A stretch of 64,000 nucleotides of DNA, from positions 12,280 to 76,279 of the forward strand of contig CAZUVH010000004.1 of assembly GCA_964623775.1 (NCBI GenBank), given 5' to 3'. Of the stretch, positions 5,690 through 62,693 are shown one piece after another. Position numbers and translations under genes: made by a program. Position 1 is the first letter of the stretch; each line of letters starts with the position of its first letter. The stretch comes from an uncultured Candidatus Saccharibacteria bacterium (GTDB lineage: Bacteria; Patescibacteriota; Minisyncoccia; Phycocordibacterales; UBA2100). A model generated the notes under the pieces. The model was not told where the DNA came from. It did not search any database and worked only from the letters and a program-made list of their open reading frames with translations.

Positions 5690-7060
5690 CTAATAGTGAT
5701 ACCAGTTCTGCACAGGGTAGCCAACAACTTTTGCCTCAGGCGGCACGAGTATCCAGGAATTGTGTGTGAATGGCGCGTAATCAATGTCGCACATATCCGC
5801 TTGTTCAACGATTCTGTAGAAAGGCCCGCCGTTTATTGAATGATCGAATTGCAGCGCTATTCGATGTATGTTCGGATTTTGCTTGCATTGGTTGCGCAGC
5901 TTCGACCACCATTCATACGGATCGCATCTATTCCAGGCTGTTCCCGATTCATACCGCATCTCCAGGGTGTTTTCCTTTGCGCCGAGCATTGTTGCGCGCT
6001 TCACGAGGCAATAGAAGCCGCCGCAAGGTGTTCCTTCTGAAACCTCGTAATCTCTATCAGGGTCTAATTTTTCGGATGTATACCTCGTCACGGTGGCAAT
6101 GCATTGATGATTTGCCTCAAACATAAACATGCCGTACCGATTTCCTTCGAGTGTGAGGTAGCGATCAGATGAGATACTGAACCCAAGCAGTTGAAAGAGC
6201 GCGACGATCACGACCAGACACCACCCCGCGATGGCGGCGCGCGTAAAAGGTGTCTTTGTGTGGCGGTACATCGGACCAAATAGAATAAGGAGAGGTGGGA
6301 GTGAGATCGAGGGGTAGTTATATATTACGAGGATCCCAGAATACAAATGAAAGAATACCGCAAATGCAAAACTGGCCCTTTGTAAAATCCAATTGCGCGA
6401 AAGCAAAAACCATGCGCCGACCACCTGCTCGAAAATGACGATGTTTGTCGCTATAGGGATGAGCCAATCAGGGAAAAGGGGAATACCGTCTACCAGGGAG
6501 CTAAAATATGTCCCCTCAATCCATGCGGGAGAGAATTTTACCGTAACCGACATGAAGTAGAATAATACGAACAGGAGTTTCAAAAAATATTCTTTGAAGG
6601 GAATGAAAAGAAGTGCCGCTGTGAGAAATATATGGTAGTAGTCGTACGGCCCCACATTGAGGTAATTGAGAGATAGCTCAAAAATTTTCCAAAGAAGAAG
6701 AAATAGCAAAAGCATGTGAGCGTGCACCCATTGTTTTCTCCACATGCAGTAGACGATAAGCAGCATGATTCCGTAGAGAGCCATGTACACTGTGGTGTGC
6801 GAATACCCGTACGGCAGCGCGTGTAATACGTAAAAATCGGCGCAGCTTTGGAAAAAAGGCCAGCACACGGCACCGGCATTGCGTGCGGCCTCTGCCGTGA
6901 TATTTGAGCGTATACTCCATACGAAGAATGTGACGAAAAAATAAAAAAGCATCGCTCCGAACATCCACTGGAGAACGATGCCGCTCTCAATTTCGTCGAT
7001 ACTGAAAATTTTCCGATATTTCGCCGCAAAAATTCGCCAATAGTGTCTGACCTTTCCCAT
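5690..7060 (-). CDS. Polytopic integral membrane protein with C-terminal Cys-containing soluble domain (weak HTTM/VKGC-like resemblance)
   Basis: 456 aa, roughly 9 predicted TM segments in the first 300 aa. It starts 3 bp after the SagB stop, making it the third gene of the copy-1 YcaO-SagB operon. Confidence 0.55.
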   Translation of the reverse strand: MGKVRHYWRIFAAKYRKIFSIDEIESGIVLQWMFGAMLFYFFVTFFVWSIRSNITAEAARNAGAVCWPFFQSCADFYVLHALPYGYSHTTVYMALYGIMLLIVYCMWRKQWVHAHMLLLFLLLWKIFELSLNYLNVGPYDYYHIFLTAALLFIPFKEYFLKLLFVLFYFMSVTVKFSPAWIEGTYFSSLVDGIPLFPDWLIPIATNIVIFEQVVGAWFLLSRNWILQRASFAFAVFFHLYSGILVIYNYPSISLPPLLILFGPMYRHTKTPFTRAAIAGWCLVVIVALFQLLGFSISSDRYLTLEGNRYGMFMFEANHQCIATVTRYTSEKLDPDRDYEVSEGTPCGGFYCLVKRATMLGAKENTLEMRYESGTAWNRCDPYEWWSKLRNQCKQNPNIHRIALQFDHSINGGPFYRIVEQADMCDIDYAPFTHNSWILVPPEAKVVGYPVQNWYHY

Positions 7061-50424: not shown

Positions 50425-50694
50425 ATGTTCTACACATACGTACTAAAGAGTGTAAAAGGTGACAATCTTTACGTTGGTTACACACGTGATCTAAAGAGGC
50501 GTCTATTAGAACATAATCAAGGATTAAATCTTTCGACCAAGCCATACCGACCCTGGAAAGTTATTTACTACGAAGCGTGTTTGAACGAAGTGGATGCAAA
50601 ACGACGTGAGGGATATTTGAAGAAGACTCAGGGCGGCCGTTTACTCAAGTTGCGACTGAAGGAGTATTTTTATCAAGAAGGTCGAAAGATTTAA
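50425..50694 (+). CDS. GIY-YIG domain protein (small stand-alone nuclease-like)
   Basis: MFYTYVLKSVKGDNLYVGYTRDLKRRLLEHN is the canonical GIY-YIG. The local GC is much lower than the surrounding sequence. Confidence 0.7.
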   Translation: MFYTYVLKSVKGDNLYVGYTRDLKRRLLEHNQGLNLSTKPYRPWKVIYYEACLNEVDAKRREGYLKKTQGGRLLKLRLKEYFYQEGRKI

Positions 50695-55519: not shown

Positions 55520-55645
55520 CGGGAGCGGGGATCGGGTCAAGCGCTCGAAAAGTTTTCGTCAAAACTTTTCTCCGCCTGACCACGGTTTTGCGACCCACGC
55601 TGCTGCGTGGGACCCCCGCAAAACCCGTTCGATTCCCCGACACTC

Positions 55646-55690
55646 CAAAAACAGCACGCCGCCAGAGACATGCTCTGGCGGCGGCTGATT
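55646..55690 (-). terminator. Rho-independent terminator downstream of ssrA
   Basis: On the minus strand: CAGCCGCCGCCAGAG-catgt-CTCTGGCGGCGTGCTG followed by TTTTTGG. Confidence 0.6.
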
Positions 55691-55694
55691 TTAG

Positions 55695-56089
55695 TGGAGG
55701 TGCGGGGAATCGAACCCCGGTCCAGAAAATGATGTACAAGCGATTCTACGGTGCGTAGAGCATTCAATTTTGTTTAGACACTTTGCCTTAAGAATGCACA
55801 ACATAGCAAAGCGTCGGACTCTCTTTCTTTAGGTTTTTAGTCGGAGTGAACTAAAAACCGTATCCGATTATATGACGTTCAGTTCAAAGAATCGGAGATC
55901 TCTGAGTGAACGGTCGTTTGGCGCGTTTAAGCGAAAACGAGGCCGAGGTTATTCACCTGAATCGGTGAGAGAACCCCCCGTGCAGTTTTGTTTGCACTTA
56001 GATTTGAATGTTTTTATGCAAGATCATTCTCTTGCGCATCGCACACAGGCACATTGAATTTCCTGTCGAAGCCGGTCACCCCCCACCTC
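55695..56089 (-). ncRNA. ssrA: tmRNA (SsrA)
   Basis: Minus-strand 5' end is GGAGGTGGGGGGTGACCGGCTTCGACAGG (tRNA-like acceptor plus the GGnTTCGACnGG element). The 3' end is CTGGACCGGGGTTCGATTCCCCGCACCTCCA. T-stem CGGGG/CCCCG, T-loop TTCGATT. The 7-bp acceptor GGAGGTG/CACCTCC is complementary. Length ~395 nt. smpB lies 1.4 kb away. Confidence 0.75.
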
Positions 56090-56129
56090 CAATCCATTGC
56101 TGGATTAGAGGTGGCGATTGACCGACATA

Positions 56130-56147
56130 TTGAGTATCGAAATGTGG
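56130..56147. repeat. 18-bp inverted-repeat arm TTGAGTATCGAAATGTGG (right end of mini-cassette C)
   Basis: One of four copies, two in each orientation, that pairwise flank the small genes 56193..56381 and 56509..57066. Confidence 0.55.
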
Positions 56148-56192
56148 ACGGAATCCCAAATAGGGATTCCGTCGAAGATCAGTAGCGAGGCT

Positions 56193-56381
56193 TCACCGGC
56201 GAGGGTGAAAATCGTCGTCGTCGAAACCGTCGTCGTCGAAGGCACTTTCGGTGCGAAGTCTGTCCATCTCCGCCCAGCCGCGTTCGATCGCAGCATCTTC
56301 TGCCGCCTGAGTCGGGAATCGGCGACGATGTTCCAGTATTTCCTCCTGAAGGCGCGTATCGGGATCTCGGGGACCGGACAT
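56193..56381 (-). CDS. Small acidic protein (62 aa), cassette C
   Basis: Track ORF 56193..56408 starts at a GTG inside the repeat. The internal ATG at 56381 has an AAGGAGG SD. Product is MSGPRDPDTRLQEEILEHRRRFPTQAAEDAAIERGWAEMDRLRTESAFDDDGFDDDDFHPRR. Confidence 0.4.
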   Translation of the reverse strand: MSGPRDPDTRLQEEILEHRRRFPTQAAEDAAIERGWAEMDRLRTESAFDDDGFDDDDFHPRR

Positions 56382-56404
56382 GTGGCTCTCCTCCTTTTTT
56401 GGTA

Positions 56405-56448
56405 CCACATTTCGATACTCAAGTTTTTTATTGAGTATCGAAATGTGG
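56405..56448. repeat. Back-to-back inverted repeat CCACATTTCGATACTCAA-gtttttta-TTGAGTATCGAAATGTGG (left end of cassette C / right end of cassette B)
   Basis: Perfect 18-bp arms with an 8-bp AT spacer. Confidence 0.55.
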
Positions 56449-56508
56449 GCAGGATCGCATTCGCGATCCTGCCAACGGTAATGTACTGAAAGTTCAGTGC
56501 AGGCGGGC

Positions 56509-57066
56509 TTACGCAGCCAGCCGCGGCTTCTTCTTGGCGCCGAGACACCGCTGCACTGCTGCAGCGAAGTCTGCGTTGCAACGGAGCGTCTTCATTTGTG
56601 CTGCGAGCGTGTAGACGCCGATGCGCAGACGCCGATGCCGGCCCGGGTTCAAGATCCGCTCAGTTTTCGCGGACATGAGGCGGCTCCTCGTCCGTTTCAC
56701 CAGACCCCAGCGGAGATTCTTCGGAGCCGCAAGGCGCCTCCGCTCCATCTCCTCCTTCATCCAGTCGGCGGCCATTTCATCTTCCCAGCGCTCCTCCTCC
56801 TCGCGACGCCAGTCAGAGATGTTGTCGTCGTACTTGTTGCGAGGACGCATACTCTGCAGGTCGATCATGTCGAAGCCGTCATCGTCGTCGTCCACTTCAG
56901 CCTCGTCCTCCGAATCCTGCATCAGGAACGGGGGAGCGTTCTCGGCCCAGTTGACGGTGAAGTCGGGCCGATCAACTTCGAAGTCGAAGAGGTCGTCGAG
57001 CGGGGGAAGGCTCTTCAGCAAGCTGCAGCCATCCGCGAGTTCAAGGTGCGTGCTCCAAATCGTCAT
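56509..57066 (-). CDS. Acidic hypothetical protein (185 aa), cassette B
   Basis: RBS GGAGAAAG before ATG at 57066. Asp/Glu-rich (EVDDDDDGFDMIDL) with a basic C-terminus. Confidence 0.45.
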   Translation of the reverse strand: MTIWSTHLELADGCSLLKSLPPLDDLFDFEVDRPDFTVNWAENAPPFLMQDSEDEAEVDDDDDGFDMIDLQSMRPRNKYDDNISDWRREEEERWEDEMAADWMKEEMERRRLAAPKNLRWGLVKRTRSRLMSAKTERILNPGRHRRLRIGVYTLAAQMKTLRCNADFAAAVQRCLGAKKKPRLAA

Positions 57067-57143
57067 AGTCTTTCTCCTCTAATGACGAATCATATGCCCC
57101 GTGTCCGGGCGGTTTTACTCCACTTGTGTCCTTACACTAAGGT

Positions 57144-57185
57144 CCACATTTCGATACTCAATTGTGTTCCATTGCTTGAATGTGG
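57144..57185. repeat. Junction of cassette B left arm (CCACATTTCGATACTCAA, 57144-57161) and cassette A right arm (CCATTGCTTGAATGTGG, 57169-57185)
   Basis: The second motif is the inverted partner of CCACATTCAAACAATGG at 57480-57496 (16/17). Confidence 0.5.
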
Positions 57186-57224
57186 GGACGAGGGGCGTGA
57201 TACGCGGCTCCTCGTCCCATGTCG

Positions 57225-57420
57225 TCAACGAGTGTAGATCTCGTCGAGCGGGACAACCCGTCCCTTTGCTCTGCGCTCGACCTCTTGATCGAGATCGTTG
57301 CCCTCTTGATCGTCGAGGGTGCGAGAGACGATACGCGTCCTTTCACCCTCGCGGATGAATGAGCGATGTCTCGCAGAGGTCTTCATCGGTTTCCGATTCG
57401 TGTTCTTCATCAAAGTACTT
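57225..57420 (-). CDS. Small protein (65 aa; basic N-terminus, acidic C-terminus), cassette A
   Basis: Track ORF 57225..57479. The internal ATG at 57420 has an AAGGAAG SD. Product begins MKNTNRKPMKTSARHRSFIREGERTRIV.... Confidence 0.35.
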
Positions 57421-57479
57421 CCTTGGGTATTGTTTCGCGTGCGCGAAACTGTGGTCACCTCCATGGCTTCCACATTCAA

Positions 57480-57496
57480 ACAATGGAACTCTTATT
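57480..57496. repeat. Inverted-repeat arm CCACATTCAAACAATGG (left end of cassette A), overlapping smpB stop
   Basis: See 57169-57185. Confidence 0.45.
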
Positions 57497-57938
57497 ATTC
57501 AGTTTTCAAAGTTCTTTCAATCTTCCGCTTTTCTTCGCGTGCGCGTATGGTACTACGTTTATCGCCTTTTTTCTTACCCCGGGCGATTGCGATACTGAGT
57601 TTCAAATTCCTTCCTTTATTATACACCGAAATAGGCACTATTGTCAACCCTTTTTCACCCTCCGCCGAGGCTACGCGGGCTATTTCCTTGGTATTGAGGA
57701 GGAGCCTTCGGCTGCGCTCGGGATCATAAGAATCTGGTGCGTTTTTGACCTGCCATGCGGGGATGGTCGCGCCTACGAGATACACTTCGCCGCCACGTGC
57801 GACCACGCGCGCGCCCTTGAGTGACCCCAGCCCGGCGCGCAAAGAGCGCACTTCGAGGCCGAGCAATTCCAAGCCCGCCTCGATGGTCTCGAGGATCTCG
57901 TAATCAAACCCTACCCGGTTGTTCTCAATAAGATTCAT
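57495..57938 (-). CDS. smpB: SsrA-binding protein SmpB
   Basis: Track ORF 57495..57974; ATG at 57938. Contains LIENNRVGFDYEILETIEAGLELLGLEVRSLR and a C-terminal ARGKKKGDKR tail. Confidence 0.88.
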   Translation of the reverse strand: MNLIENNRVGFDYEILETIEAGLELLGLEVRSLRAGLGSLKGARVVARGGEVYLVGATIPAWQVKNAPDSYDPERSRRLLLNTKEIARVASAEGEKGLTIVPISVYNKGRNLKLSIAIARGKKKGDKRSTIRAREEKRKIERTLKTE

Positions 57939-62549: not shown

Positions 62550-62622
62550 CCGCCCGTAGCTCAATGGTTAGAGCACAGAGCTTATACCTCTGGGGTTCCT
62601 GGTTCGAGTCCAGGCGGGCGGA
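62550..62622 (+). tRNA. tRNA-Ile (anticodon UAU)
   Basis: Acceptor CCGCCCG/CGGGCGG, D-arm GCTC-AATGGTTA-GAGC, anticodon stem CAGAG/CTCTG with loop CTTATAC (anticodon TAT), variable GGGTT, T-arm CCTGG-TTCGAGT-CCAGG, discriminator A. No encoded CCA. A TATAAT lies ~80 nt upstream. Confidence 0.75.
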
Positions 62623-62693
62623 CAAACGTTACTTCAAGTTGGATGTGCATTTCTGGATTGCAGCTTCGCTCATGCGTGCAACAATAAGGCAAT

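Follow-up and report, generated by a model that had tools for sequence, protein, structure and literature searches.

Small genes bracketed by inverted repeats between smpB and ssrA in Candidatus Kaiserbacteria: possible maturation from the pre-tmRNA leader

We found that three small genes lie between smpB and ssrA, the gene for transfer-messenger RNA (tmRNA), in a 64,000-nucleotide stretch of DNA from an uncultured bacterium (GenBank assembly GCA_964623775.1, contig CAZUVH010000004.1, positions 12,280 to 76,279), and that each of these genes is bracketed by inverted repeats. We refer to the whole 64-kb stretch as the window and to the individual repeats as arms. Our preferred interpretation, which we hold tentatively and would put somewhat short of an even chance, is that the arms form long-range stems in RNA, probably sites for RNase III, and that these stems delimit small messenger RNAs (mRNAs) that lack promoters of their own and lie in the leader of the tmRNA precursor (pre-tmRNA). 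A preliminary description of the window, made from the sequence alone, had offered several interpretations of the bracketed genes. Of these, the evidence favours the suggestion that the repeats might form long RNA stems.

The window comes from a member of Candidatus Kaiserbacteria, in the candidate phyla radiation (CPR). Its SmpB matches P0002 at 100% identity and the SmpB proteins of Candidatus Kaiserbacteria and other Parcubacteria metagenome-assembled genomes at 83-87%. We compared the window with loci from relatives (designated by L numbers), which were smpB neighbourhoods; one of them, L042, came instead from a metagenome scan for the 18-mer of the arms.

Three small genes bracketed by inverted repeats

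The genes in this region are all on the minus strand, in the order smpB, C, B, A, ssrA, with three open reading frames (ORFs) between smpB and the tmRNA gene (Table 1). Read on the coding strand, each unit consists of a 5' arm, an untranslated region (UTR) with a Shine-Dalgarno (SD) sequence, an ORF, and a GC-rich hairpin that lacks a T-tract and abuts the 3' arm. The arms are of two types. The b type (CCATTGTTTGAATGTGG) brackets gene C and the a type (TTGAGTATCGAAATGTGG) brackets genes B and A. This agrees with the preliminary description, in which the three genes between smpB and ssrA were bracketed by four perfect 18-mers and two 17-mer copies.

The a-type word, CCACATTTCGATACTCAA or its complement, is present in four copies with 0 mismatches (56130-56147, 56405-56422, 56431-56448, and 57144-57161), and the middle junction is indeed palindromic, over 44 nt (56405-56448). 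The b-type word, CCACATTCAAACAATGG, is at 57470-57486, and its second copy, at 57169-57185, has one mismatch. The b arms reach 20 nt (GTTCCATTGTTTGAATGTGG from 57489 to 57470, with its partner from 57185 to 57166), and in RNA of the coding strand the lone mismatch is a U.G wobble. Based on shuffles, the window is expected to contain 0.05 matches to the a-type word at up to 3 mismatches and 0.11 matches to the b-type word. There were no further matches to either word in the window at up to 3 mismatches, nor were there other perfect long-range inverted repeats of at least 17 nt.

The inner motif GAA(A)TGTGG is common to the a and b arms, and TA adjoins most a arms. The junction b'-AACACAA-a is common to the window and L005. 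Two other roles for the arms were rejected. They do not appear to be promoters, as there is no conserved -10 element at a fixed distance 3' of the arms, and their complementarity to mature tmRNA is no better than that of shuffled arms.

Predicted pairing of the arms in RNA

The long stems that the preliminary description had raised as a possibility were recovered when we folded the 1552-nt leader with ViennaRNA, with predicted pairing probabilities for the arms of 0.91-0.99. The probability was 0.91 for the 5' and 3' b arms, 0.99 for the outer a pair (that is, the first 5' arm with the last 3' arm), and 0.96 for the local hairpin formed by the adjoining a' and a arms. Single cassettes were also predicted to fold closed by their arms (z = -7.2 and -4.9). 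The stems are 18-21 bp, or about two helical turns, and are predicted to stack on an 11-bp hairpin. Pairing of the arms together with this stacking would close off each cistron as a domain of its own.

Some differences in the arms among the relatives preserve pairing. In the a pair, an A-U is replaced by a G-C in L046-48, and in the b pair a U-A is replaced by a U.G. The layout of arm, SD, ORF and hairpin abutting the 3' arm is common to three unrelated arm sequences, a, b, and a third type, c, that is found in L042. In sequence that otherwise diverges fast, the arms hardly vary, and neither does the b hairpin in its 3' half. The hairpins after genes B and A are distinguished from each other by four compensatory base-pair changes.

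A probable single transcript from smpB through ssrA

A consensus sigma-70 promoter lies inside smpB (Table 1). It is conserved at synonymous sites: the codons TTG ACA do not vary across 13 loci, and 12 of these loci, cassette-less ones among them, have TAT AAT. Across smpB as a whole, only 15 of 140 third codon positions are invariant, and third positions are ~50% identical between these genomes. Judging from this conservation, the promoter inside smpB is likely to be that of ssrA, and likely also that of the cassettes. If so, whatever DNA separates smpB from ssrA would be transcribed as part of the pre-tmRNA leader.

No promoter-like sites were predicted inside the array, and no terminator-like sites were found on the coding strand between smpB and the tmRNA terminator. 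Real terminators of this genome have clear T-tracts; the cassette hairpins do not. We infer that smpB, the three small genes, and ssrA are co-transcribed. A comparison with Rfam at E <= 1 found no known RNA families besides tmRNA.

Two other structures in this transcription unit are of note. Just past the tmRNA terminator (window 55627-55646) is an inverted copy of the tmRNA 3' end (T-loop and acceptor 3' strand; 30 nt, 77% complementary). L042 has a 15-nt perfect version (1770-1784 / 1842-1856). The inverted copy gives a weak match to the Rfam family 'tmRNA_permuted' (29 bits, below threshold), and in read-through transcripts it could pair with the tmRNA 3' end to form a 3' processing stem. 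In addition, long local hairpins are found directly 3' of the smpB stop codon in relatives with and without cassettes (L049 3267-3335, L051 3955-4025, L005 5478-5505, and L046 3978-4005) and are absent from the window. They may serve this leader as additional structures for processing or stabilisation.

Table 1. Features of the smpB-ssrA region, listed in the direction of transcription (coordinates are those of the window; MFE, minimum free energy; pI, isoelectric point)
Feature	Coordinates	Strand	Remarks
smpB	57495..57938	-	147 aa from ATG 57938; Pfam SmpB E=3.4e-41
Consensus sigma-70 promoter TTGACA-18-TATAAT, inside smpB	57618..57647	-	12/12 consensus positions; ~120 nt before stop codon
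b-type 5' arm GTTCCATTGTTTGAATGTGG	57470..57489	-	Invariant in five independent loci
Small hairpin GTTTCG-CGCAC-GCGAAAC, 5' UTR of gene C	57432..57449	-	Stem kept in L003 and L049 with different loops
Gene C	57225..57410	-	61 aa, basic, pI 10.1; C-terminus VVPLDEIYTR; SD AAGGAAG
GC-rich hairpin after gene C, no T-tract	57185..57218	-	Abuts 3' arm; five loci, with wobble changes and one compensatory change
b-type 3' arm CCACATTCAAGCAATGGAAC	57166..57185	-	Closes predicted MFE fold of gene C cassette RNA, z = -7.2
a-type 5' arm TTGAGTATCGAAATGTGG, first copy, upstream of gene B	57144..57161	-	No-mismatch copy
Gene B	56509..57066	-	185 aa, acidic, pI 5.2; DDDDDGFD; C-terminus PRLAA
GC hairpin after gene B, GGCAGGATCGC-GAAT-GCGATCCTGCC	56448..56473	-	Abuts 3' arm
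Back-to-back a junction: 3' arm 56448-56431, 8-nt spacer, 5' arm 56422-56405	56405..56448	-	44-nt palindrome
Gene A	56193..56381	-	62 aa, acidic, pI 4.5; DDDGFDDDDF tail; SD AAAGGAGG
GC hairpin after gene A, GACGGAATCCC-TATTT-GGGATTCCGTC	56147..56173	-	Kept in L042 and L049 with covariation
a-type 3' arm, last copy	56130..56147	-	Predicted to pair with first a 5' arm
Conserved tmRNA leader: GTCAATCGCC box and hairpin abutting mature 5' end	56083..56122	-	Present also in L003, L042, L049, and L054
tmRNA gene (ssrA), tag ANKTARGVLSPIQVNNLGLVFA	55694..56083	-	ARAGORN; Rfam RF00023, 137.7 bits
Canonical intrinsic terminator, 11-bp stem and T-tract	55657..55683	-	First terminator-like site downstream of smpB on this strand

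Proposed processing of the pre-tmRNA leader

We propose the following sequence of events. A single transcript containing smpB, the three small genes, and ssrA would start at the smpB promoter and at the promoter inside smpB and would end after ssrA. Each pair of arms would form a stem of 18-21 bp that stacks on the hairpin beside it. These stems would then be cut by a nuclease specific for double strands, most likely RNase III; we infer both the cleavage and the identity of the nuclease. The cuts would release separate small mRNAs with structured ends and would free the pre-tmRNA, and RNase P would then trim the pre-tmRNA 5' end. The modules would be clade-specific, vertically inherited genes without promoters that exploit the transcription of ssrA.

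Similar activities are known from other systems. RNase III cuts the stems flanking 16S and 23S ribosomal RNA (rRNA) (PMC6582327), and it cuts intervening sequence (IVS) elements that bear ORFs and are closed by 28-bp terminal repeats (PMC4990558). Processing of tmRNA precursors involves RNase P as well as RNase III or RNase E (PMC3968760). Long-range intramolecular duplexes in Bacillus subtilis mRNAs are likewise cut by RNase III (PMC11780869).

We compared the locus to each of these. As with the flanking stems of rRNA, distant sequences around a functional unit would pair in the precursor of a stable RNA, and there are several units in series (PMC6582327). In contrast to rRNA, each unit here is an ORF for a protein and belongs to the 5' leader of a tmRNA precursor, and its cleavage is proposed. 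Like the units here, the IVS elements of 23S rRNA in Coxiella and Leptospira are optional, patchily distributed, and ORF-bearing; they are part of a stable-RNA transcription unit and are closed by terminal complementarity, with a stem of 28 bp in Coxiella and excision by RNase III without re-ligation (PMC4990558). However, IVS elements lie inside the mature rRNA and encode proteins of the S23p family, whereas the units described here lie upstream of the mature tmRNA in arrays of one to three, have good SDs, and encode unrelated orphan proteins. The RNase III targets in B. subtilis are also duplexes that span hundreds of nucleotides of one mRNA and are cut at paired positions; so far as that report describes them, they do not make up a conserved module that recurs around one cistron after another (PMC11780869). 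By analogy, the locus would work most like the rRNA flanking stems and the IVS elements. It would be a member of neither family, because its units are protein genes with SDs in the leader of a tmRNA gene. We found no description of this gene arrangement in the literature searched.

Several results weigh against the proposed processing. RNase P alone could be sufficient to free tmRNA, in which case cleavage of the stems would not be strictly required. Formal covariation in the b stem was not above the shuffle control, and non-Watson-Crick cells in this stem are about as often A.C as G.U, so that their counts favour neither strand as the site of the structure. The a pair of L049 has two uncompensated mismatches. 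No rnc gene (for RNase III) is encoded in the window, although its absence from this stretch alone is not informative. In addition, the arms are 18/18 identical between genomes whose smpB third codon positions are only ~50% identical, and the adjacent hairpins drift by compensation. Because the arms are more conserved than pairing alone requires, their conservation hints at sequence-specific recognition.

It is conceivable that the arms are binding sites for a regulator, either a pair of DNA operators that loops out each gene or the site of an RNA-binding protein, and that their complementarity is a by-product of one site used in two orientations. The much stronger conservation of the arms than of the adjacent, structure-constrained hairpins would fit such sites, as would the inner motif common to the a and b types. 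We think that this is quite improbable, since one layout is found with three different arm sequences, the compensatory change from A-U to G-C keeps the arms complementary, and no regulator gene is linked to the locus. Furthermore, typical operators do not take the form of 18-21-nt sites that converge strictly on every gene from both sides.

The structural evidence that suggests processing would apply equally to stems that are never cut. Uncleaved, the pairing of 5' and 3' arms could act as an end-to-end clamp that shields each cistron from exonucleases or keeps it translationally inert until it is remodelled, and the hairpins on the 3' side resemble stabilising elements. A parallel for such a clamp is the tac-fbi (fold-back) pairing in hok mRNAs. 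However, unless the transcript is cut the arms are internal in a polycistronic RNA rather than at RNA ends, and the encoded proteins are hydrophilic, unlike the Hok membrane toxins. We consider clamps of this kind unlikely, and continue to favour stems that are processing sites.

Distribution of the units among relatives

The same architecture was found in eight independent loci, including the window. The window contains b-C-b', then a-B-a', then a-A-a'. L003 contains only b-C-b', L046-48 contain only a-A-a', and L005, L043-45, and L049 contain b-C-b' followed by an a unit. L042 has an a pair with a long cargo together with the third repeat type, c, in the same layout. There is no unit in L004, L051/52, L053, or L054, where tmRNA follows ~45-180 nt after smpB. 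Thus, smpB and ssrA are adjacent without cassettes in some relatives, a point that the preliminary description had proposed to check, and these loci (L004, L051-54) belong to a sister clade. No carrier departs from the order smpB, b, a, ssrA or from the sense orientation of the 5' arms. The units occupy precisely the space from the smpB stop codon to the conserved leader box, (CA)GTCAATCGCC, which in L054, an empty locus, comes 13 nt after that stop codon.

In a neighbour-joining tree of SmpB, the carriers group together in one small clade, to which the clade of empty loci is sister. Because of this relationship, the distribution fits one gain of the units followed by differential loss. The conserved arms and frame enclose cargo that is different or very divergent; that is, by sequence comparison the units are modular.

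The arms appear to be confined to this location. Across ~157 kb of Kaiserbacteria DNA, made up of the window and 93 kb from the related loci, they were found only in the smpB-ssrA interval. When metagenomes were scanned for the a-type 18-mer, one real relative came up, L042, with the arms again at smpB-ssrA. A scan of species-representative genomes for the b-type word found no copy in Kaiserbacteria and 27 chance-level single matches in unrelated taxa. Viral scans found 0 matches to the a type and 18 chance-level single matches to the b type. The preliminary description had raised the concern that the 18-mer might simply be a frequent genomic word. With no other match in the window or related loci, and with the results from the genome, metagenome, and viral scans, this concern is ruled out.

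We also considered that the units are cassettes at the level of DNA. In this case, the arms would be sites for a transposase or site-specific recombinase that is encoded elsewhere and that inserts, excises, or exchanges modules in the smpB-ssrA spacer, either as a non-autonomous element bounded by terminal inverted repeats or as an integron-like system. The modular content of the units and their presence or absence among relatives would fit with this, as would the finding that identical a arms enclose B, B' (a family unrelated to B, described below), A, or B' plus A. The arm sequences are strictly conserved, as are ends recognised by proteins, the two tandem a units of the window are joined by a palindrome, and there is the TA next to most a arms. 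Nonetheless, we regard DNA-level cassettes as rather unlikely. No copies are found outside the locus in the window, the 93 kb of related loci, or the a-type metagenome scan, and there was no Kaiserbacteria match to the b type in the genome scan. There is no recombinase or transposase gene nearby; specifically, no site-specific recombinase is encoded within ~5 kb on either side of the array. Comparison of filled sites with empty ones (L053 and L054) shows no clear target-site duplication, and the TA could equally be an extension of the repeat. None of the 8 independent carriers differs in orientation or in having b before a, and by SmpB they are monophyletic, such that a single gain plus losses suffices. 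Lastly, inverted repeats would favour inversion over excision.

Miniature inverted-repeat transposable elements (MITEs), such as Correia elements, and integron arrays provide examples of terminal inverted repeats, of modular, co-oriented units without promoters, and of variable content between conserved boundaries. Like MITEs, the units have terminal inverted repeats, with arms of 17-21 nt that are perfect or have one wobble. Unlike MITEs, they are not dispersed in the window, the related loci, or the scans, and they are coding, with a conserved ORF and SD. The resemblance to integrons is in the co-oriented cassettes without predicted promoters and in the conserved upstream promoter, here in smpB. 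In contrast to integrons, there is no adjacent intI or attI, the RYYYAAC and GTTRRRY cores are absent, and the repeats flank genes, with only the a'-a junction being locally palindromic. The preliminary description had likened the region to a cassette array or to MITE-bounded modules. The modularity holds up. Mobility and a MITE nature find no support, given the single locus, the lack of a clearly visible target-site duplication, the fixed order and orientation, and the restriction to one SmpB clade.

The preliminary description had also pointed to tmRNA genes as hot spots for integration. Integrases that target tmRNA genes are known to use the 3' end of ssrA. The units described here are 5' of ssrA, between the smpB stop codon and the tmRNA leader, so this argument is not supported here. 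Unlike tmRNA-integrated islands, which have an integrase and, downstream of ssrA, a second att copy of its 3' end, the locus has no integrase, and the downstream copy of the ssrA 3' end is inverted rather than direct.

Serial segments flanked by inverted repeats are also the geometry of shufflons, and here 17-21-bp inverted repeats flank segments of 170-1000 bp in series. If these segments were invertible (a shufflon or inverton), a recombinase would flip each gene on or off relative to the upstream promoter. This is highly improbable. All of the genes point the same way, with no flipped segment in the 8 independent loci or in either of two separate assemblies from the strain of the window. 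There is no adjacent recombinase gene, and each segment is a complete gene with its own SD rather than an alternative gene end.

Some of the relatives have additional rearrangements. In L042, the third inverted-repeat pair (ACAAGTGCTTGAGGGTGA / TCACCCTCAAGCACTTGT, 1144-1161 / 1338-1355), unrelated to the others, lies between the a unit and tmRNA, and the c unit holds an SD and a short ORF, with its hairpin directly against the 3' arm. Either decay or sequencing errors have broken the reading frames in the long cargo of the L042 a unit. In L043 (4379-4425), a partial 3' arm, CACATTTCG, comes 16 nt after an a 5' arm, with a small hairpin (ACAGC-AAAG-GCTGT) between them. From its sequence, this appears to be an a unit that has lost its cargo; after it come genes resembling A and B'. 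Also in L043 (3920-4005), smpB ends early, and an insertion of ~60 nt, containing two small hairpins, separates it from a remnant that still encodes the usual C-terminus (…IERTLKTK).

The encoded proteins

Homologues of gene C are found in the equivalent position in L003, L005, L043, and L049, with 27-36% identity to C of the window, and a search of 5.8 billion proteins found only 6 clusters of this family. The gene A family is present in the a cassettes of L005, L043, L046, and L049, with 18-26% identity to A of the window. Gene B has a single homologue among 1.84 billion representative proteins (P0122, 32% identity), and it is likewise encoded directly after smpB. The ORFs, start positions, SDs, and terminal motifs are kept in the homologues; for example, C ends in PLDEI[FY]xR and A begins with MSxKRRREP. 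Because these features are kept and because the homologue of B also follows smpB, the comparison indicates that A, B, and C are real genes despite their divergence.

The preliminary description had characterised the products as small, charged, Asp-rich proteins with good SDs. There is an SD at all three genes, and A and B are acidic with DDDGFD motifs; C, in contrast, is basic. Gene C had been placed at 57225-57420. The gene is present, and its likelier start is the ATG at 57410 (61 aa), which matches the starts of the homologues.

The a frame holds B in the window and the unrelated B' family in L005 and L043; similarity between window B and the B' protein of L005 was not significant. The possibility that A, B, and C are paralogues was rejected, as there is no similarity among them. 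None of the three had a match in Pfam, PADLOC, PHROGs, NCBIfam, or PDB sequences, the DNA of the region had no match in a phage collection, and B had no protein match in a plasmid collection. With nothing in any of these sources, the earlier idea of addiction or defence modules finds no support. An AlphaFold2 model of B together with its one homologue had a pLDDT (predicted local distance difference test) score of 47.5.

Proteins of the B and B' families have Ala-Ala C-termini: PRLAA (window 56509-56523), QYSAA, and PRQAAA (P0122; L005 5893-6732). These recall the C-terminal ends of ssrA degradation tags, and the genes adjoin ssrA. An acidic-aromatic motif is common to A (ESAFDDDGFDDDDF) and B (DDDDDGFD).

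A broader proposal, which is speculative and in our estimation improbable, takes one of two forms. In one, fast-evolving genes without promoters reside in the pre-tmRNA leader and are matured at conserved stems, and their products act on trans-translation or on tag-dependent proteolysis. Such action would be hinted at by the Ala-Ala ends of the B family and the DDDGFD motifs of A and B. In the other, the arms are attachment (att) sites of a cassette exchange dedicated to this locus.

Neighbouring genes

The neighbours of the locus encode a patatin-like protein, FtsH, GSDH, DUF3298, and DinB, along with small unannotated ORFs. In the window, an AT-rich ORF of 89 aa at 50425-50694 (plus strand) encodes a stand-alone GIY-YIG nuclease (Pfam E=4.6e-17) and contains a 15-nt perfect inverted repeat (50524-50538 / 50680-50694). 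Similar GIY-YIG genes are just downstream of tmRNA in L047, L048, and L054. In the cassette-less locus L004, a serine recombinase (Resolvase) gene at 5906-6454 overlaps the tmRNA 3' end on the opposite strand. That is, the Resolvase gene of L004 and the GIY-YIG genes of the relatives are all on the 3' side of ssrA. A tRNA-Ile with anticodon TAT (window 62550-62623) is near ftsH, and the same tRNA adjoins ftsH in L005.

Implications

If the stems are processing sites, then the principle known from rRNA operons and IVS elements, in which flanking stems excise units, extends to protein genes in a tmRNA precursor. This would also show a way for CPR bacteria with reduced genomes to make small proteins specific to their lineage from genes that have no promoter or terminator of their own. 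If it is DNA on which the arms act, the locus would instead be a cassette system confined to one site and served by no known recombinase. The combination of a conserved frame and hypervariable cargo makes this a site of fast protein innovation adjoining the ribosome-rescue system, and the locus yields concrete candidate partners for SmpB-tmRNA in an uncultured phylum.

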